Source of the DNA: Promethearchaeota archaeon
Lineage (GTDB): Archaea; Asgardarchaeota; Lokiarchaeia; Sigyniarchaeales; SOKP01
DNA: 32,616 bases
Reading direction: 5' to 3'
NCBI GenBank assembly: GCA_030603385.1
Contig: JAUVXW010000044.1
Location: forward strand, 1 to 32,616
Both the position numbers and the translations under genes were made by a program. Positions within the stretch are counted from its first letter, which is position 1. Every line of letters begins with the position of its first letter. The notes below the pieces were generated by a model that made no database searches, had not been told where the DNA came from, and saw nothing but the letters and a program-made list of their open reading frames with translations. Shown piece by piece: positions 3,318-30,526 of the stretch.

Positions 3318-4550
3318 ATGATTGAAAAAAACTTAGAGGGTTTTGAAGAATTTTATACTGAAAAAATTAATTCTCTTTTTTCAAAAATAAAAAAGGCTCT
3401 AAAGAAGTTAATTTTAGAAATAAGGAATAATTTAATCGAAATTAAAGTATGTTTAGATCATTTCTTAGAAGCTGGAAAGGAAAAAATTGATCAGAAGGCT
3501 CAAAAGTCTCTTAATTTTTTTTCAGATCGAATTAGAAAAGAAATAAATGAGATTGAAGTTCCTGAAGAGGAAATAACCTATGACAGTACATTGGATTTAC
3601 TAAATTCGATTAAGAAATTATTTACAAGCGTTAATGAAATTGCGAAAAAATCACTACCGAAATTTCAGAAAGAAGTCCAACCTCAAATTAAAGAATTAAA
3701 CTATATAACTCGCAAATTAGGCAAAAAACAAGCTGAATTAGACGATTTTTTAAGAAAGAAATATAATGAGGTAAAAGAAGCCGAATATCTATTAAAGAAA
3801 TTGCCTAAAATCTTTACACTAAAAGAAAATATTGAACACGCTAAAGCAGATTTAGATAAGTTTGAAACTGAATTAGAAGAGAGGAAAAAGAGACAAAATG
3901 AATTAAATACACAACTTATAGAACTTGAAAAAAATAATTTATTTAAGGAATTGGAAATCGAAAAAGATAAACAATTTCAGCTACAATTGAAAATAAATGA
4001 TGAAATCGGCTTTAAAAAAGCTCTAAAGAAATTTAAATTTGAACTAGAAAAAGGAACTTCTCATGTTCCTAATATAGATTTAAATTATTTGAGAGATTTT
4101 CTTAAAAATCCGATTAGGATACTCTCTTCTGAAAGAAAAGATTTACCCAAATTTACTAGTTTAATGGTCCAATTAAGACACGCACTAGAAGAAAATAGAT
4201 TAAATCTTAAAACAGATACTAAACAAAAAACAATTGAGCATATCAATGCAATCTTCGATGAAAAAATACTTCAAACATATATCGAAGAATACTTAAAGCT
4301 TAAAGAAGAAATAAAAGCAGTAGAAGGAAAAATTCAAGTAGCAGGTTTAGCTGAGAAATTAAAGGAATTGAAAAATGAAATATCAACTAATACAGTCAAA
4401 CTCGAGCATACTAATAATGATTATGACAGAAAAAATAAAGATTATACTAGATACCTAAATTCTTTAAAAAATGATAGAGAGGAATTCCAATCGCTTTTAG
4501 AGGAAATATTAGGAGAAAAAGTAAAACTAAATATTGTATTTACTTTTTAA
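3318..4550 (+). CDS. Coiled-coil hypothetical protein (410 aa)
   Basis: Long E/K/L-rich heptad ORF 14 bp after serS. Stop overlaps the convergent cofC-like stop at 4547-4550. Confidence 0.8.
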   Translation: MIEKNLEGFEEFYTEKINSLFSKIKKALKKLILEIRNNLIEIKVCLDHFLEAGKEKIDQKAQKSLNFFSDRIRKEINEIEVPEEEITYDSTLDLLNSIKKLFTSVNEIAKKSLPKFQKEVQPQIKELNYITRKLGKKQAELDDFLRKKYNEVKEAEYLLKKLPKIFTLKENIEHAKADLDKFETELEERKKRQNELNTQLIELEKNNLFKELEIEKDKQFQLQLKINDEIGFKKALKKFKFELEKGTSHVPNIDLNYLRDFLKNPIRILSSERKDLPKFTSLMVQLRHALEENRLNLKTDTKQKTIEHINAIFDEKILQTYIEEYLKLKEEIKAVEGKIQVAGLAEKLKELKNEISTNTVKLEHTNNDYDRKNKDYTRYLNSLKNDREEFQSLLEEILGEKVKLNIVFTF

Positions 4551-5368: not shown

Positions 5369-5932
5369 CTATTTTAAATTATTTAAAATTTGAACTGATA
5401 ATGATTCAAAGGCTTTATCGATGTTCTCATTTGATTTTGCTGAAGTTTCAATATATTGTACATTATAGAGATCGGATTTTTCTTCTGCATCCTCAAATAA
5501 AACCAACCTTTCATCTTTTTTATCAATCTTATTACCAATAATCATAAAGGGAATCTCTCCACTTAATTCCTTTAATTTAGAAATCCAAAAATCAATGTTA
5601 TCGAAAGATTCTCTATTTATAACATCGTATACTACAAAAGCACCAACAGCTTGGACAAAATAATATTCATTGCTAAATAATTTATCGTGCTGACCACCTA
5701 AATCCCAGAAATAAAGTTTAAATCCTTTTTGTTTAACATCTTCTTTCAATTTGGGATTTTTTATATCGAGTCTATCTACTATCATACTTAAATCTATTTC
5801 CTTAATTAAAAAATTAGCTCCGACAGTTTGTATGTATTCTTCACTAAATAAATCATCTACATATCGTGCTAAGAGACTAGTTTTTCCTACTCCCGCATCT
5901 CCACACAGAATCACTTTACCGCGATATGACAT
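5369..5932 (-). CDS. Rab-like small GTPase (Ras superfamily)
   Basis: G1 GDAGVGKT, G2 QTVG, G3 WDLGGQ, G4 NKID, G5 ETSAK. No C-terminal Cys prenylation motif. Confidence 0.93.
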   Translation of the reverse strand: MSYRGKVILCGDAGVGKTSLLARYVDDLFSEEYIQTVGANFLIKEIDLSMIVDRLDIKNPKLKEDVKQKGFKLYFWDLGGQHDKLFSNEYYFVQAVGAFVVYDVINRESFDNIDFWISKLKELSGEIPFMIIGNKIDKKDERLVLFEDAEEKSDLYNVQYIETSAKSNENIDKAFESLSVQILNNLK

Positions 5933-22448: not shown

Positions 22449-23306
22449 CTAGAATTCATATCCACATTTTTTACAAACGTGCTTCTTGGCATACATTGGA
22501 ATATGTCCTACGTAGCTTAAAACTTTACTTTTATCTTCGACAGTTTTGATGTTATGACCAACAGAACCACACATAGGACATGTAATTCTCTCATCGGCAG
22601 CGAAACCACCCGCACCTATCTCTGGAGGTTTTAATTCTTCTAATTCAGATTCAACTTCGGTGAGGTGAGCTGTTGTTGACTCTAATGCTTGCTCTTTTTC
22701 AGTAAGAGCATCACTTAATTCTTGGATTTTAGTATCTCTTTGTAATAAGGTATTATTTAATTCACTAAGTTGTGAGTTTAACTGATCAAATTCACTTTGA
22801 GATGCGGTAAGTTTGGAGTTTAAATCTTCATTTTCTGACTTTAGATTACTGATTTCTTCTTGGTTTGTTGAGATTGTACTATTTGCTTCATTTAATTGAG
22901 TTTCTAGATCTGCTGCTTTTTGTGTTGAAGCTTCTAAAGTTGCTATTTTTTCTTCTGAAGTACTTAGGCTTGATTCAAGATCACTAACTTTAGTTTTATG
23001 TTCTTCTAAATCGTTCTTTAAAGCCTCTTTTTCCGCGGTTAGAGCTTCGATAGTTTGATCTTTCCTTTGACCTTCTCCAATTGTTTTTTCAAGCGTATTT
23101 TGAGTGTCATCAAGACTACTTTTAGTATCAGCAAGTTCATTTTGAGTGTTAGCAAGTTTATCTTGTGTTTGAGATAATTCATTTTTGGCTTCGGAAAGTT
23201 GTTTTTCCAGATCGTTGACCTTGGCTCTAAGATCTAACAAGAATCTGCCTGCAACTGACATTTTCTTAGCTGGTTTTGCTTCAGCTTTTTCCCAGTCAAT
23301 ACTAAT
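22449..23306 (-). CDS. Long coiled-coil protein with C-terminal zinc ribbon (CPMCG...CKKCGYEF)
   Basis: Heptad-rich body and a 4-Cys C-terminus. Frame stays open upstream of ATG 23261 to an ATT at 23306, 6 nt after a GGTGA RBS ((M)SIDWEKAEAKPAKK-MSVAGRF). Confidence 0.8.
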   Translation of the reverse strand: MSIDWEKAEAKPAKKMSVAGRFLLDLRAKVNDLEKQLSEAKNELSQTQDKLANTQNELADTKSSLDDTQNTLEKTIGEGQRKDQTIEALTAEKEALKNDLEEHKTKVSDLESSLSTSEEKIATLEASTQKAADLETQLNEANSTISTNQEEISNLKSENEDLNSKLTASQSEFDQLNSQLSELNNTLLQRDTKIQELSDALTEKEQALESTTAHLTEVESELEELKPPEIGAGGFAADERITCPMCGSVGHNIKTVEDKSKVLSYVGHIPMYAKKHVCKKCGYEF

Positions 23307-23519: not shown

Positions 23520-24368
23520 ATGAACGATACGGAAAATTCACAATTTAAAATCGAATATATTTCAACCTCAGGAGTTTACAAAACTCCGTTTACATTAATT
23601 ATTCTTCTACAATTATTTGTTGGGGGAATTGTTTTAGTTTTCATTAATTTTTGGTTTATCAACCAACTATATTTTCTTCTTACAGGAAAAGAATTTTTTT
23701 CTTTAGGTCTTACTGCTGAATGGTATTATTGGTTATTATTGCCTTTAAATCTTTATGGAAATATATTTTTATTTGCGTTTTCCATCATACTATTTTCAGC
23801 GGGTATTAACAAAATTTTAAACAAAATGTATCCTCCAAGAGAAGGTGTTTTCAAGAGAGGAAGTAAAGAGTGGAAATATACCCATCGAAGATTTTGGAAT
23901 GCATATTTTCCTATTTGGCTCGCAAGGGCATTACCTATACCATGGACTGACATTTTTGCTTACCGTTTCTTTGGAGTTTCAATTGGTAAAAATGTCGTTG
24001 CCTATGAAGGCTATATTGATCCCGAGTTTATAGAAATAGGGGATTTTACTATGACTTCATCGAACATATGTATCTTTTCCCATCTGATATACCATGAGCA
24101 AATCATAATAAAAAAGGTAAAAATTGGTAAAGCTTGTGTTGTTGGACCTCAAACAATTGTCAGTCCTGGTACCGTCATGCAAGATGGAGCTGTTTTAGGA
24201 GCCAATAGTTATACTTGGGTAGGACAAGAATTAGAGAGTGATTTGATTCATGTTGGAACTCCTGTAAGTATGACATTTCCAATCCAATCATTAGAAGAAT
24301 CTCAAGAAAAAGCAGAAAGAGTTATAAGTGATCCTCTTGAAAACAGAGAAGGAGATGATAGTATTTAG
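23520..24368 (+). CDS. Membrane protein with left-handed beta-helix (hexapeptide) acyltransferase domain
   Basis: Two N-terminal TM segments, PPREGVF, FFGVSIGKNV, IEIGD, VKIGKACVVG, GTVMQDGAVLGA repeats. Confidence 0.85.
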   Translation: MNDTENSQFKIEYISTSGVYKTPFTLIILLQLFVGGIVLVFINFWFINQLYFLLTGKEFFSLGLTAEWYYWLLLPLNLYGNIFLFAFSIILFSAGINKILNKMYPPREGVFKRGSKEWKYTHRRFWNAYFPIWLARALPIPWTDIFAYRFFGVSIGKNVVAYEGYIDPEFIEIGDFTMTSSNICIFSHLIYHEQIIIKKVKIGKACVVGPQTIVSPGTVMQDGAVLGANSYTWVGQELESDLIHVGTPVSMTFPIQSLEESQEKAERVISDPLENREGDDSI

Positions 24369-24401
24369 ATGTTTCAACCCGCGAGTTTAAAAGGTGATTT
24401 T
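24369..24401 (+). pseudogene. Orphaned original 5' end of the downstream acyltransferase gene (MFQPASLKGD)
   Basis: ATG immediately follows the upstream TAG, with GGAGATG RBS. 8/10 aa identical to MFSPASLKCD at 26717. Confidence 0.75.
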
Positions 24402-26746
24402 GTCTATAAGGAATTATAATAATCCCTAATATGATATATTAATAAAATAGTCTCTATTCCATTGTTATTTAAAAAATACTTAGTAGGTCTTCCAGCTATA
24501 ATGTCTACAAATTGTGTGATAACATTTTTTTTTTTATAAAAATAATTACTAATACTTGATGAACTTATTTTTAAATATTCTGCTAAGGTATAAACAGTAA
24601 CATCATGACCCGATTTCGTAATCTCATAAATTGCTGTTAAATATCTTTCAATGCTTTCAGTAATTTTAAAGTTTTTTTTTAGTGGATTCCCAACTAGCGA
24701 GCTATTATAATGAATAATAGTGAAATTTTTAGAAACAGAATTATAATCCTCGAGTATTCTTTTCACAACATTTTTATTCTCATAAATTTCATCTAGTAAA
24801 TGAAATTTTTCATAGTGAATAACTGTATGACAATTTGAACAGATATACCCTCCTCTTTCTTGTTCTAATATTTTCACGATTTCTGAACATGAATGAAGAC
24901 TATATAAATTTGAAGCTTCAATATTTTTTGTTTTTTTATCTTCATGATTAAAATGGAATGCTGAGAGATGTTTCTTTGTATTAAATTCCACACAAGTAGG
25001 ACAATATTCTCCATAGACACACTCTATAATATATCTCTTTTTTATATAACTTTTGATACGCCTTCTTATCTCTTTTTTAAATTTTATTGGCAAATTTCTA
25101 GTTAACCTATGATTCTCTACTGAAGTTCTAATAAGTAAATGAATTAATTCCGCAGGTAAGGAAAAAAGATTTTCCCAATTAATAAGATAATTAAAATATT
25201 TAAAATAACTTTCATGTAGCATATGGTGATGATTTCTACATACTAAAATTACTTTCTCTGATTCCATTAAACTAATTAAATGTTCTAAAAAATGCGTGTT
25301 TGCCTGATTTTTAGTAAACATATTATATAAATTATCAACAGTAAATTGATTCTCTTTTTTATTAGTGTTGTGATGGAATTCCAGAGCCTCTAATCTTGAA
25401 ATGTCGGTGTTTTTAATCAATCCTTCTTTCATGCATTCGGGACATTTAGCTTTTCCTTCTTTGAAATATTTTCCATTATAAATGTTTTTTATTAAGTATA
25501 GTTTTATTTTATTTCCAACAATTTTTTCATATTCTTCCTGTTCTTTTTCTCTTTCCTTTTTAGAAAGATTTTTTTGAACATACGAACGAAGTGGAAAAAA
25601 ATCAGAAAAGTGTCGGTATAAAAAATCATAAATTTCTATAACAACATAATAAAATTGTCTAGGTTTTTTAAGTAAATTAATACCTCTTTCAATCAAAGAT
25701 TCAGCAATATATTTAATGACTAAATGTGCACTAATTTTTTTATAAAACATGCTTGAAATGATTATTTGTTTAATTAATTCGACCAAATCAGAAAAATATC
25801 TGATGAATGTATCTTGATATAAAGTGAGCATTTCATGAAGCATACTAATGTCTTTTTGAGTTAATAATTTAGGAAGATTAATACCATTCAAGATATTTCC
25901 TTTCAGAGATGAAACAAGTTTAGAAGTTTTAATCTCAGTATCCTTTATTAATCCGAATAAATAAAGAGAAATAATGTTTCTAATATTATTAAAACCAGGA
26001 TAAGAAGGAAAACGGAATTCTGTCCTTGGATATAATTGTCCAAAGTATTTTTTATAGTAACTTGAGATATCACTAGATGATTTTATATTGATGCTAGTTA
26101 GTCCAGCTATTTCTTCTCTAGTAATTATTGGCATGTTTTTGTTTGAAAGAGCGGCTGTATAAATGATAGTGGCTGCAATTTTCTCAAGATTGGCGTTTTT
26201 AGGGATAATAAATTCATTGTTTTTAGCTCTTAAAATGAACTCACTTAATATCTCTAATGATTTTCCCACTATAAACTCCTTTTGTTCGATTGTGCATTCG
26301 ATTGAATCAATTAAATGTTTCAGATATTCTATTATTTTTTGCTTAAAATTAAATTTTTTATTCAAGTTTATCATTTTCTATTATAAGAAATGCTTACTAT
26401 TTGATTCAATGACAGTGAAAAATTTCAAGGTATATATAATCCAACATTTCTCTCTTGTAATTTTTCTAAAACTTCTAGAGATTGTTTATTACTCGTGTAT
26501 CCATTACACCAAATTAGTAATTTATTCAGAACATTTCCTTATTTCAAAAACATGCCATTCACCACGATAAATTGCTTTTCTAATTCTCCTTTCATTTCCT
26601 TACTTGTTTAAATTTTAGAATATTGCATAAATCTTTATTATTGTTATCATTAAATTTTTTACATTAGGAACTCTAAGTAAACATAGAATATTTAAAAAGA
26701 CTTTATTGTAAAATAAATGTTTTCTCCTGCTAGTTTGAAGTGCGAT
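24400..26746. mobile_element. Putative free-standing homing-endonuclease-like insertion carrying a replacement gene 5' end
   Basis: Antisense HNH-type gene flanked by two diverged copies of the same 10 codons. Boundaries approximate; no terminal inverted repeats seen. Confidence 0.65.
24404..26374 (-). CDS. Multidomain putative endonuclease: TFIIB/cyclin-like N-terminus, two Zn-binding HNH-like modules, C-terminal winged HTH
   Basis: IAATIIYTAAL...ITREEIAGL...SSDISSYY (TFIIB repeat-like); CPEC...ALEFHH...CRNHHHMLH; CPTC...AFHFNH...CSNCHTVIH; ERYLTAIYEI...VTVYTLAEYLKISSSSISNYF...YFLNNNG (DtxR/MarR-like wHTH). Confidence 0.75.
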   Translation of the reverse strand: MINLNKKFNFKQKIIEYLKHLIDSIECTIEQKEFIVGKSLEILSEFILRAKNNEFIIPKNANLEKIAATIIYTAALSNKNMPIITREEIAGLTSINIKSSSDISSYYKKYFGQLYPRTEFRFPSYPGFNNIRNIISLYLFGLIKDTEIKTSKLVSSLKGNILNGINLPKLLTQKDISMLHEMLTLYQDTFIRYFSDLVELIKQIIISSMFYKKISAHLVIKYIAESLIERGINLLKKPRQFYYVVIEIYDFLYRHFSDFFPLRSYVQKNLSKKEREKEQEEYEKIVGNKIKLYLIKNIYNGKYFKEGKAKCPECMKEGLIKNTDISRLEALEFHHNTNKKENQFTVDNLYNMFTKNQANTHFLEHLISLMESEKVILVCRNHHHMLHESYFKYFNYLINWENLFSLPAELIHLLIRTSVENHRLTRNLPIKFKKEIRRRIKSYIKKRYIIECVYGEYCPTCVEFNTKKHLSAFHFNHEDKKTKNIEASNLYSLHSCSEIVKILEQERGGYICSNCHTVIHYEKFHLLDEIYENKNVVKRILEDYNSVSKNFTIIHYNSSLVGNPLKKNFKITESIERYLTAIYEITKSGHDVTVYTLAEYLKISSSSISNYFYKKKNVITQFVDIIAGRPTKYFLNNNGIETILLIYHIRDYYNSL

Positions 26747-27454
26747 TCTCCCACACCGATAGATGAGAGAATACGGAATAAATATCTTATCATATATTTA
26801 ATGATAATTATCCTGAGTTTTATTCCTTGCTCCTTATTTGAATATATTTATGTATTATATTTATGGAAAGAGGGATTGTATTTACTTTTCTTTTTATTAC
26901 TTCCGTTTAATTTCTTGATTTTAATTTATATACTCCAAATAAGTGCAATATTATTTTCTGTCCTATTTTTAACTATTATTAATCTATTATTTCCCCCTAA
27001 AGAGGGAATTTTTTCTCGAGATGTAGGAGATAAAAATTATTTGTTTTGGAATTTAAGAAATCTTTCCAAAAAATGGCCCTTATTTATCTCGGCTTCAAAT
27101 CCTTTTCCTTGGCTGAAAAATCGTTTTACTCTTAGATTTTTTGGAGTAAGGATTGGTAAGAAGGCGATATGTGATACATGTTGGATCTCTTCTGAGTTTG
27201 TAAATATTGGTAATAATGTTATTATTGGAATGGGAAGCACACTTTTAAGTTTCGGAATTGAACAAGATAAATTTATATTAAAAAGGATTCAAGTAGAAGA
27301 TAACGTATTAATTGGAGCTAAATGTGTTTTATTACCAGGTACTATTATAAAAAAAGACTCAAAATTATCAGCTCATTCCTATACAAATTTTGATGATATA
27401 TTAAAGGAGAATTCAATTTATTCAGGTCATCCTGCAAAAATAAAAGAAGTCTAA
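26717..27454 (+). CDS. Second membrane-bound hexapeptide-repeat acyltransferase, paralog of 23520-24368
   Basis: TM segments, PPKEGIF, FFGVRIGKKA, VNIGNNVIIG, VEDNVLIGAKCVLLPGTII, YSGHPAK. Confidence 0.85.
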   Translation: MFSPASLKCDSPTPIDERIRNKYLIIYLMIIILSFIPCSLFEYIYVLYLWKEGLYLLFFLLLPFNFLILIYILQISAILFSVLFLTIINLLFPPKEGIFSRDVGDKNYLFWNLRNLSKKWPLFISASNPFPWLKNRFTLRFFGVRIGKKAICDTCWISSEFVNIGNNVIIGMGSTLLSFGIEQDKFILKRIQVEDNVLIGAKCVLLPGTIIKKDSKLSAHSYTNFDDILKENSIYSGHPAKIKEV

Positions 27455-27460
27455 ACAAAT

Positions 27461-29056
27461 ATGATAACTGAAAAAAGTAACAGATTAGAAATTAAACAAA
27501 AAATTGAAACTAGAAAAAGACTTGTAATTATTTCTGATACTCATATTAGTCGGTCAGGAGGTCCCTTTAACTTACATACATTTAATTTAGGTGTAGAACA
27601 AATAAATAAGATAGAAGATGTCGATTTATTTCTACATTTAGGTGATATAACTCAAAATGGTACTTTATTAGAATATGAGTATACATCAGAACAATTTAAA
27701 AAGTTTGAGCCCGTTTCTAAATGTCCGTTAATGATACTTATTGGAAATCATGATGCAATGAACGTAGGGTACCTTTTGTTTGAGGAGATGATCGGTAGAA
27801 GGCATTATGAGTATGAAGATGAGGAGTTATTTGTTATCGGAATTGATAGCACTAAACCTGACTTACCTGGTGGAATTATTCATCACAATATAATTGAATT
27901 AGTTCGAGAAGAATTAATAAAAAAGGAAAGAGAAAACAAATTTAAAATAGTTTGTTTTCACCATCAACTCATCCCGATTCCTAATACCGGAAAAGAAAGA
28001 TCTGCAATTGATGATTCAGGCGATATGCTTAAAATGCTCTTAGAAGCAAAGGCAGATTTAGTTTTAAATGGACATCGTCATACATCAAATTTATATACTT
28101 TGAGTAATAGTGAAAAAGATCTATATGTTTTTAATGCGGGTACATTCTGTTGTAATAAAACAAGATATCGCGAATTATTTACCTATGCAATCATCGACAT
28201 TGAGGGAAATAATCTCACTTTTAAGGTAATTCCAATATTAGATTCTAACTCTATGCATGAAATTCATCGTGAAGTTAACTATTATCTTCCATTAGAAATA
28301 AAAAAAGGTCTAAAACCATTATGTAGATTTATGCAAATGTCACAATCTTTAATCACCGCTGAATCTGAAAATGTGGTGACTAACTTTGACAAAGCAATTG
28401 AGCGTATAAATAAAATAAGCGATGTAGATTTAGTTGTACATACTGGAAATGTAACTCAAAATAGTTATAAGGAAGAATTTAGAATAGCTAAAGAAAAAAT
28501 AGATAATTTAAAATATCCTTATATAGTTGTACCTGGGTACACGGATTCGAAACCTCTCTTTTGGGATTATTGGAGACGGAATTTTGGTGAATTCGATCCC
28601 TTGTTTGAAAACGAAAAGATATACTTTCAAGGATTAAATTCTACAATCCAAGATTCTACTGAGGGGTCCATAGGACGAAAAAGAATGAATAAATTTATTG
28701 AAAAAGTTTTATCCCATAGCCATCAAAAAATATTTGGTGTTTGTTGTTTTCATAGTTTAATTCCTACCCCTTTAAGCGTATGGAGAACAGAATTAAATGA
28801 TTCTGGAGACGTACTCTCTCAATTTGCTCGGTCTCAAATTGAACTTTGCTTAAATAGCACCCCCAGTATCTCCTTTAATGTTAAAATTGATAATACTGTG
28901 TTCTCTAATGGTGGAAATCTTAGATCTGAAAGATTTTTTGAGGCTTTTATTGAAATTGAAATCTATAAAGAGGGATATGTTGTATTGAAAGAGCATAATT
29001 TGAAAACGGGAGAAACTAAAACTATAGGGACCTATAATATAACCATTTTCATATGA
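27461..29056 (+). CDS. Metallophosphoesterase (calcineurin-like) with tandem domains, second degenerate
   Basis: Domain 1 has SDTH, LGD, GNHD, FHH, NGHRH. Domain 2 has SQS, TGN, PGYTD, FHS, NSTP at the equivalent positions. Confidence 0.88.
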   Translation: MITEKSNRLEIKQKIETRKRLVIISDTHISRSGGPFNLHTFNLGVEQINKIEDVDLFLHLGDITQNGTLLEYEYTSEQFKKFEPVSKCPLMILIGNHDAMNVGYLLFEEMIGRRHYEYEDEELFVIGIDSTKPDLPGGIIHHNIIELVREELIKKERENKFKIVCFHHQLIPIPNTGKERSAIDDSGDMLKMLLEAKADLVLNGHRHTSNLYTLSNSEKDLYVFNAGTFCCNKTRYRELFTYAIIDIEGNNLTFKVIPILDSNSMHEIHREVNYYLPLEIKKGLKPLCRFMQMSQSLITAESENVVTNFDKAIERINKISDVDLVVHTGNVTQNSYKEEFRIAKEKIDNLKYPYIVVPGYTDSKPLFWDYWRRNFGEFDPLFENEKIYFQGLNSTIQDSTEGSIGRKRMNKFIEKVLSHSHQKIFGVCCFHSLIPTPLSVWRTELNDSGDVLSQFARSQIELCLNSTPSISFNVKIDNTVFSNGGNLRSERFFEAFIEIEIYKEGYVVLKEHNLKTGETKTIGTYNITIFI

Positions 29057-29153: not shown

Positions 29154-29435
29154 ATGGCTAAAGTAAAATTACACTTATTAAACATTTTCCAGCTAAAACT
29201 CAACCAGAAATTCATTGAATATGAAGGTAAAAACGTTGGAGTTATAATCTCTCAATTTTTAGGGGAGTATAAAGAGAAGCTTGGAGATGATTTATTAGAT
29301 AAAAGTAGAACCAAGCTTAACCCTCAAATTTTAATTCTGTTGAATGGAAGAAACATTAAATACCTAAAAAATTACAAAACAAAACTCAACGAGAATGATG
29401 ATCTCTACTTATCCTTTGCTCTAGCGGGTGGATAA
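29154..29435 (+). CDS. Ubiquitin-like beta-grasp protein (MoaD/ThiS/SAMP/Urm1 family)
   Basis: ILILLNGRNI...L...D.L...ALAGG with C-terminal di-glycine. Confidence 0.9.
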   Translation: MAKVKLHLLNIFQLKLNQKFIEYEGKNVGVIISQFLGEYKEKLGDDLLDKSRTKLNPQILILLNGRNIKYLKNYKTKLNENDDLYLSFALAGG

Positions 29436-29590: not shown

Positions 29591-30526
29591 GTTTCAAAAA
29601 AAATTGCATTCATGGGATTAGATTTCGCAGGTAAAACCAGTATCATAACAGCAATTACGAAACGATTTGGTTTTGAAGAACAGATCTCTAAATTAGCACC
29701 AACGAGAAGAATTGCTCGCGATACTTTTAAATTTTTAGGATTGGAATTTTCAAGACTTGATTTTGGCGGTCAGCGAATTTATAGGAAAGATTATTTAAAA
29801 CATCCAGAGAAATTCTTGAGCGGAATAGATTTGATTTTTTATGTTATAGATGCTCAAGATTTTGATAGGTATATTGAATCAATAGATTATTTGGAAGAAG
29901 TATTATTATTTTTTAAGGAATACCAAGAAGATGTAATAGTAGCGATCCTCTTTCATAAGTTCGACCCTCAACTTATAGATGATGTAGAAATAAACAAAAG
30001 GATCCTTACCCTAAAACAAGCATTAACAAGATATTCTAATCATTTCGATATTTTTTTCTTTGAAACAACAATATTCGATATCAAGTCTGTCATGGATGCT
30101 TTTTCAAGCGGATTATCAATGCTTTTCGAAAAAATGGAAATGGTCTCTAATTTATTTGCAGAAATTAGTAAGAACTATAATGCAATCCTAATATCATTAT
30201 TCGATTCAAAAGGGATAACACTCGGGGAGTTTTATCGTCCACACCTACAATTGATACAAAAATTAAAAATTTATGAGATATATTTAGATTTACAAAAACG
30301 TATTATTTCAGAAAGTAGAACCTTGTATGAATTTTCTGATAAATTTGAGAATGGTGAAAGGTTTTCTGGTGTCATCGAAGTCCTTAAATTCGGAAATTTA
30401 GAGTTTTATTTACTTTTTATTATTGAAGAAGATCAAAAAGATTTAGAGAAGACCGTAACACTATTAGATAAAATCGAATCAGCTAAGCCTCAAATGGAGA
30501 ATTTAATCTTACAAATTATCCAATAA
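29591..30526 (+). CDS. Arf/Rag-like small GTPase with C-terminal roadblock/longin-like domain
   Basis: (V)SKKIAFM-GLDFAGKT (G1), APT (G2), DFGGQ (G3), HKFD (G4), ETTI (G5), plus a ~130-aa alpha/beta C-terminal domain (LFDSKGITLGEF). True start uncertain (GTT 29591, or ATG 29584 with a frameshift). Confidence 0.85.
   Translation, partial: VSKKIAFMGLDFAGKTSIITAITKRFGFEEQISKLAPTRRIARDTFKFLGLEFSRLDFGGQRIYRKDYLKHPEKFLSGIDLIFYVIDAQDFDRYIESIDYLEEVLLFFKEYQEDVIVAILFHKFDPQLIDDVEINKRILTLKQALTRYSNHFDIFFFETTIFDIKSVMDAFSSGLSMLFEKMEMVSNLFAEISKNYNAILISLFDSKGITLGEFYRPHLQLIQKLKIYEIYLDLQKRIISESRTLYEFSDKFENGERFSGVIEVLKFGNLEFYLLFIIEEDQKDLEKTVTLLDKIESAKPQMENLILQIIQ

Follow-up and report, generated by a model that had tools for sequence, protein, structure and literature searches.

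Why a gene should begin twice is the question raised by the locus considered here. In the window, which is the whole 32,616-nucleotide stretch of a Promethearchaeota contig that was analysed, gene a1 (23520–24368, plus strand), encoding a membrane hexapeptide-repeat (LbH) acyltransferase-like protein of 282 residues, ends with its stop codon at 24368 and is followed at once by an ATG at 24369. This opens the peptide MFQPASLKGD (24369–24398) and, when read onward, a 16-codon frame that ends at 24419. Five bases past this stub lies the stop codon (24404–24406) of an antisense open reading frame of 656 residues, a putative homing endonuclease (24404–26374, minus strand). The neighbouring gene a2 begins at 26717, offset from the stub by 2,348 bp, as MFSPASLKCD. 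The two starts share eight of ten residues and 21 of 30 nucleotides, the Pro, Ala, Leu and Lys codons all differing at position 3, and both copies close with GATT (24396–24399 and 26744–26747). When the whole genome was translated in six frames, giving 7.78 million 10-mers, none besides the stub matched the start of a2 at 8/10 residues. An earlier note on this DNA had described the duplicated start, its four wobble differences and the antisense gene correctly, and had proposed that a nuclease element brought the second copy with it.

Comparison with relatives identifies the copy that belongs to the host. In 43 genomes of the same genus, a1 and a2 are directly adjacent, as the earlier note had anticipated for an empty site, and a2 starts in the manner of the stub; the stub (24369–24399, plus strand; codons 1–10 plus one base) is therefore the host-type copy, displaced by an insertion after codon 10 of a2. 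It matches the N terminus of the orthologs and has two mismatches against the nearest empty alleles. The start of the working copy has 7–12 mismatches against all 43. Its wobble bases, which had been taken as a sign of protein-level selection, are not diagnostic of it, as each of them is also found in empty alleles of the hosts, where mismatches average 3.9 per 30 nt. Protein-level selection need not be acting on the stub either. Its fresh look stems from its host origin, and the corresponding stub in contig L093 already carries a stop codon. The changes absent from the 43 hosts are those at nucleotides 7–9 (Gln to Ser) and nucleotide 25 (Gly to Cys), both non-synonymous. In 28 genomes from other genera of the host family, residue 3 is Gln in 23, Gly in four and Ser in one, G358, in which the site is without an element and differs from the element copy at 3 of 30 positions. 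This allele could represent either the donor lineage or a second footprint of the element, and the suggestion that the second copy came from another lineage, to which Ser3 and the close match in G358 lend some weight, is to that extent ambiguous.

That the second copy arrived with the element stands on firmer ground. The same site is occupied in G063 (a protein of 939 residues with a 225-residue companion), in contig C216 of G076 (1,535 residues) and in L093 (656 residues). The first 19 nucleotides of the right copy are identical in the window genome (G000), G063 and C216, and the stubs of these three differ at host-variable positions. In L093, the right copy has both Ser3 and Cys9, and the stop codon of its stub arose by a nonsense change. 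Past about codon 12, the a2 genes of the occupied alleles diverge like those of unrelated hosts, which places the switch near codons 10–12. All of these data are metagenome assemblies; C216 differs from the main a1–a2 locus of G076 and may be mis-binned, which leaves the within-contig comparison unaffected.

Junction alignments with C216, contig C23 of G063 and L093 place the element at 24400–26747 (2,348 bp), with boundaries uncertain by a few bases at either end. It consists of the nuclease-like gene, an AT-rich spacer, a promoter-like block and the recoded start of a2 (26717–26747, plus strand; codons 1–10 with Q3S and G9C), a candidate cleavage-resistant allele. The host gene has indeed been kept alive: a2 is an intact chimeric frame of 245 residues (26717–27454, plus strand), host-type from about codon 12. 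No splicing is required to restore it, since a complete a2 follows the insertion and the nuclease gene runs in the antisense direction. The block 5′ of the recoded start (26670–26716, plus strand) aligns with C216 over 48 bp at 81%, and the remaining spacer does not align. Within it lies the TATA-like motif to which attention had already been drawn (26691–26698, that is, at −26 to the a2 start); such a motif is found at −26/−27 in three close elements, the weak peak among host genes being at −30 to −28, a difference of 2–3 nt. The block may thus be a replacement promoter for a2 and the operon downstream. No match to an integrase or transposase was found in the element, in agreement with the earlier note's failure to see one, and none to a tyrosine or serine recombinase in the frames of three complete elements at the a2 site.

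Two alleles bear on the way in which the recoded start moves. In G070, a1 and a2 are adjacent, the flanks resemble those of the sister genome G064, and the start of a2 is identical to the right copy of the window over 30/30 nt; no nuclease homologue was found in this genome, which is 84% complete. It would seem that the element can be lost, with the recoded start staying behind. In G063, the two switches are offset, the stub ending at codon 9 and the foreign tract of the right copy running through codon 13. That copy includes a 12-nt tract that matches the distant G004 and not the close kin G012 and G030, a pattern that fits co-conversion. The bases shared at the junctions number 4–6 and differ among G000, C216, L093 and G063, with six in C216. 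Element-type a2 starts without an element lie at L086 (G070) and L229 (G358).

The distribution of occupied alleles is not that of their hosts. In a host tree built from the body of a2 and the next gene, G000, G063 and G070, which share the recoded start and so have a chimeric a2, lie far apart, each among empty-site kin with starred support. Monophyly of the occupied hosts is rejected (p-AU 0.00025, with G000 and G063 held together), contrary to what vertical occupancy would produce. At four-fold sites of the nuclease gene, G000 differs from L093 at 13/154 and from C216 at 19/145 (8–13%), compared with 13/18 and 5/6 (72–83%) in the adjacent a2 of the same host pairs; the latter counts are small (6–18 sites), yet point in the same direction. 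That the nuclease gene is so much less diverged than the neighbouring host gene indicates that the element spread sideways between distant hosts. The element of G063 is about as divergent as its host, and no recent transfer is therefore seen for it relative to G000.

The 656-residue protein is modelled with high confidence (AlphaFold pLDDT 93.9). Residues 1–119 (26018–26374, minus strand) form a TFIIB/cyclin-box domain by structure match, to human TFIIB (VIA Z 11.9, rmsd 2.7, 102 residues aligned) and to Pyrococcus TFB (Z 11.6, rmsd 1.9); it is probably DNA-binding. The C terminus, residues 570–656 (24407–24667, minus strand), is a winged helix-turn-helix (Pfam Fe_dep_repress, E 6.5e-6; VIA Z about 10 against winged helices). 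Between them lie two Zn-HNH-like repeats that are similar to one another (E 2e-6): the first, recognized by residue conservation, comprises C311, C314, H335, C379 and H383 (25214–25444, minus strand), and the second, recognized by conservation and profile, comprises C458, C461, H477, C512, N514, C515 and H516 (24815–25003, minus strand). The Cys and His residues of repeat 1 are invariant in 68–74 homologues, and the counts for individual positions are 69/69 for H335, 74/74 for H383, 77/77 for H477, 73/74 for N514 and 74/74 for H516. In the AlphaFold model, the repeats have the order strand-strand-helix, with the putative catalytic His closing a strand and His/Asn metal ligands within the helix, and this His and the Zn-binding cysteines fit the HNH order.

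Profile matches to HNH enzymes are weak, though they agree with one another: PHROG 2255, an HNH endonuclease family, gives E 5e-4 for the window protein and 1.8e-6 for that of G063, Pfam HNH profiles match 10 of 64 family members (best 4.7e-6) and the window protein itself not at all, and repeat 2 resembles phage HNH-type clusters of the ESM Atlas at 0.92–0.94. No HNH fold match was obtained for the whole protein or for residues 268–560, a search in which the helical linker filled the results and the repeats were barely probed; the whole protein had no usable match in the ESM Atlas, and no LAGLIDADG match was found in Pfam, PHROGs or PDB sequences. Taken together, these data weakly suggest an HNH nuclease. 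The earlier description of the gene as HNH-type holds for its invariant Cys and His residues in HNH order, but the profile matches are weak and the fold match is missing.

A length of about 660 residues recurs among the homologues, and longer forms add N-terminal modules. We rejected the possibility that this gene is what remains of a disrupted 1,535-residue form, as the spacer contains no remnant of a long N terminus; the same 656-residue form in the distant host L093 and the recurrence of the length also speak against it. Directly 5′ of many long forms lies a frame of about 220 residues without clear family match (L062:8465–9142, L063, L095, L102, L139, L153, L265), and the long forms so preceded begin with a Cys/His finger domain. 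Others, of 1,200–1,535 residues (L061:576–5183, L071, L073), have a very acidic, repetitive N terminus. The helical module of the long forms is common to elements with other nucleases. A split copy of the shared N-terminal module is found at L283:4826–7686 (contig C4 of the window genome), and a paralogue of the zinc-finger nuclease part on its contig C39 (4644–5657).

The family to which the protein belongs is large (331 representatives at 50% clustering) and narrowly distributed. Among 68 further genomes from the host family, 25 were found to have it, whereas a search of 232 other genomes of the phylum gave a single, weak case; close homologues of the nuclease lie on Promethearchaeota contigs, and no relatives were found in viral contigs. 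The clades of the nuclease track the target genes, 10 of 11 groups being monophyletic with 10 changes compared with 22.9 when shuffled, an association that near-copies inflate; the four elements at the a2 site form one clade. Diverged duplicates of a gene end, of 30 to about 600 bp and 67–85% identity, flank family members at ten genes, and both ends of genes are used. By names read from sequence and Pfam context, these are a2, alcohol dehydrogenase, dihydrolipoamide dehydrogenase (DLD), a small gene of a glycerol-3-phosphate operon, U32 peptidase, a PHP protein, an unnamed gene in L112, a flavodoxin/ferredoxin-like gene, a DEAD helicase and a gene in L272.

The prediction that homologues would be flanked by duplicated host-gene ends is thus borne out at ten genes, but for only a third to half of the testable loci. 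A clear duplicate is seen at about 12 of 26 well-flanked loci and at two of 19 further, mostly distant, ones. Targeted tests at nine other sites gave nothing convincing, and searches for short stubs at other sites were mostly at chance level, the candidates at L070, L107 and L119 not being counted. Long self-matches between a1 and a2 were rejected as target duplicates because they are due to paralogy of the two genes. Loss of old stubs would explain the loci without a clear duplicate, as at the DLD gene of G012, which has an element-type end and no detectable stub; alternatively, some family members may be plain intergenic insertions.

Of the other targets, the DLD gene gives the clearest picture. 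The intact DLD gene of G024 matches the empty allele of G070 (26–30 of 30 positions in each comparison interval) until about 51–60 nt before the stop codon and is element-type thereafter, and the displaced copy is identical to the host type (G070) over exactly the switched stretch. A Lys-to-Met change is present in all three occupied genomes and in none of 27 others, and two genomes have the same single switch point. At the U32 peptidase and glycerol sites, the element-adjacent copies converge between hosts, and one displaced copy has acquired a frameshift and a stop; displaced copies decay. At the a2, DLD, U32 peptidase and glycerol-3-phosphate operon sites alike, the replacement end is carried with the nuclease and the old end is stranded. 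The DLD contig of G070 breaks off at the insertion site, 22 nt past the stop codon of the gene, possibly a sign of mixed alleles.

Other elements were encountered in the same searches. The window genome has a second same-family nuclease beside its glycerol-3-phosphate operon, cut by the contig end (L075:1–1368, contig C24), and the 3′ end of the neighbouring gene matches the element-type copy of L099. The genome also contains an element of another kind (L148:4230–7091, contig C26), which encodes a 953-residue protein with the long-form N-terminal module, treble-clef/CapR zinc fingers and a match to the PHROG 559 endonucleases. It converges on a MoxR-type ATPase gene, and a repeat of the final six codons of that gene, with the stop, lies 5.9 kb upstream (p 0.017). 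The ATPase gene is in two frames there, and the matching gene is in a single frame of 285–296 residues in four relatives. A second element directed at a2 is seen at L126:4584–7193, where the 3′ end of an a2 ortholog adjoins the gene for an 869-residue protein that has several TFIIB-like boxes and a C-terminal domain of another type; 118 bp of the ortholog's end are duplicated there. The 3′ end of the DEAD-helicase gene is occupied by elements in either orientation (L267 compared with L117 and L153).

We consider that these observations are best explained by a free-standing homing element, lacking both intron and intein, of a gene-end-replacement type and resident in a Promethearchaeota (Loki) chromosome, a reading to which we assign, from sequence comparison, a probability of about 0.75. 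The protein would bind the start of a2 through its TFIIB-like box and winged helix and cut empty alleles near codons 9–12, where the two HNH-like units would together produce either a double-strand break or a pair of nicks. The donor would be DNA of an occupied chromosome in the same cell, and the break would be mended by gene conversion. On its left side the broken DNA would pair with a1, which supplies the left homology, and the donor stub; on its right side it would pair with the a2 body. Comparison of the alleles shows that the recipient retains its own stub and its own a2 body, and acquires the nuclease gene, the promoter-like block and recoded codons 1–10; a2 stays intact because these codons come to lie beside its own body. 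The occupied allele would then be resistant, since the insertion shortens the left half-site and the right copy carries changes at bases that do not otherwise vary.

Insertion by a different route deserves consideration. The element might loop out between its repeats, with a contiguous fragment of the gene end, as a small circle that enters by a single crossover at the cut, non-crossover repair leaving the resistant allele alone. The element-free recoded allele of G070, and perhaps that of G358, would follow naturally, and the DLD element does carry target-like sequence on either side of the switch. In the a2-site element, however, homology on the downstream side of the switch amounts to no more than about 5 nt, and a circle could not have held the foreign tract that lies to the right of the stub end in G063, so that we regard this route as unlikely. 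A little less likely still is a non-autonomous integrative element, in which a recombinase encoded elsewhere inserts a circle with a replacement gene start and the nuclease is cargo. SXT at prfC provides a precedent for an attachment site that brings a replacement gene start, and the sharp junctions, the GATT shared in the window, the six bases shared in C216 and the single DLD switch point in two genomes are what such a recombinase would leave. Yet complete elements have no integrase match, the core is not conserved (the L093 stub differs within it), the G063 stub ends four codons before the right-hand switch, and ten unrelated target genes with nuclease clades that track them are not expected of it.

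It is more improbable again that the protein is a regulator or addiction module instead of a site-specific nuclease, on a cassette that hitchhikes by ordinary homologous recombination. Its clear structural matches are to the DNA-binding folds of TFIIB and winged helices and its HNH scores are weak, but this would leave unexplained the two repeats with invariant Cys and His in HNH order, the linkage of clades to targets and the element-borne copies that, at two sites, are non-synonymous at invariant target bases. Scarcely credible is a single old insertion that passed down vertically with many losses and whose target-site duplication has decayed: the single clade of the four a2-site elements and the host-like divergence of the G063 element would suit it, but it would call for dozens of precise losses, monophyly of the occupied hosts is rejected, the elements of G000, L093 and C216 are far less divergent than their hosts, and the functional copy is the derived one.

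The preferred reading, homing with replacement of a gene end, has parallels elsewhere. The seg and mob genes of phage T4 are free-standing homing endonucleases that carry out intronless homing. Phage enzymes of this kind (surveyed in PMC10448857) likewise lie as free-standing genes beside conserved targets and swap DNA-binding and nuclease domains as modules, and their resistant alleles can spread without the gene, as G070 suggests here; they differ in being usually intergenic and in converting the target without a leftover duplicate. Mobile endonuclease frames of fungal mitochondria, in atp6 of Allomyces macrogynus and atp6, atp9, cox2 and nad3 of Glomus (PMC3630166), also bring a foreign gene end of horizontal origin and displace a native end that resembles the empty alleles of relatives, but in organelle genomes, with LAGLIDADG or GIY-YIG enzymes and with replacement of the C terminus. 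Both groups had been cited in the earlier note as analogues, and the likeness is real; the closest one, the WHO elements of yeast, was not named.

WHO elements, which occupy FBA1 in the yeasts Torulaspora and Lachancea (Coughlan et al. 2020, PMC7282813; Osborne et al. 2026, 10.64898/2026.08.13.744650), have been called a third, much rarer category of homing element in a 2026 preprint. They too lack an intron or intein and combine a nuclease gene with a gene end that replaces that of the host. The original end is left stranded, to be renewed with each event and to decay, and the host gene becomes chimeric, with amino acid changes at conserved target positions. In contrast, WHO proteins are LAGLIDADG enzymes with a C-terminal Zn finger, whereas the present family combines a TFIIB box, tandem Zn-HNH-like units and a winged helix-turn-helix, resides in an archaeal chromosome and is known from sequence comparison, its cleavage being putative. 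WHO elements replace the 3′ half of FBA1; in the window it is the 5′ end of an LbH acyltransferase-like gene that is exchanged, apparently together with a promoter, and the family uses many target genes and both ends, with no tandem clusters seen. Since enzyme, target and host differ, the element belongs to neither the WHO nor the fungal mitochondrial family.

Described Asgard elements include aloposons and HeimM2 (PMC8813620), and the Atabeyarchaeia elements and PacI-like viral HNH proteins (PMC11529989). They share the Asgard hosts and, in some cases, HNH-like or homing-type nucleases, but integrate at tRNA or rRNA sites or are viruses and ICEs; a term search of these two papers returned no gene-end replacement. 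No description of the nuclease family or its lifestyle in archaea was found in a literature search outside which most subscription journals lay.

The logic of WHO elements therefore recurs, with an unrelated enzyme, at about ten chromosomal genes of Asgard archaea and at both gene ends. As homing needs donor and recipient DNA in one cell, these alleles provide evidence that archaea close to the origin of eukaryotes exchange DNA and carry out homologous repair. Chimeric ends of host genes can mislead phylogenies. The enzyme family also offers many natural pairs of enzyme and target with a predicted cut region, making specificity directly testable. A broader proposal, which we put forward tentatively and think somewhat more likely to fail than to hold, is that of a large, retargetable gene-end-replacement drive family, nearly confined to one Loki family, whose undescribed nuclease would have a TFIIB-derived box and two HNH-like units per chain. 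The spread of such a family would be a record of chromosomal DNA regularly exchanged, and of breaks repaired, between Asgard species about 25% apart, with amino acid changes forced on core genes.

The genes around the locus have features of their own. Downstream of a2, positions 27461–29056 of the window encode a tandem metallophosphoesterase with a degenerate-looking second half, and 29154–29435 a small ubiquitin-like frame (Urm1-like, weak). In G063, a frame of 411 residues follows the phosphoesterase, none of that size being present there in the window, and elements adjoin phosphoesterase orthologs at L111 and L123. A 410-residue frame without a Pfam match follows the seryl-tRNA synthetase gene (3318–4550). 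Ras-family and Rag-like GTPases and a coiled-coil zinc-ribbon protein (5369–5932, 29612–30526 and 22449–23261) are ordinary Asgard signature genes.
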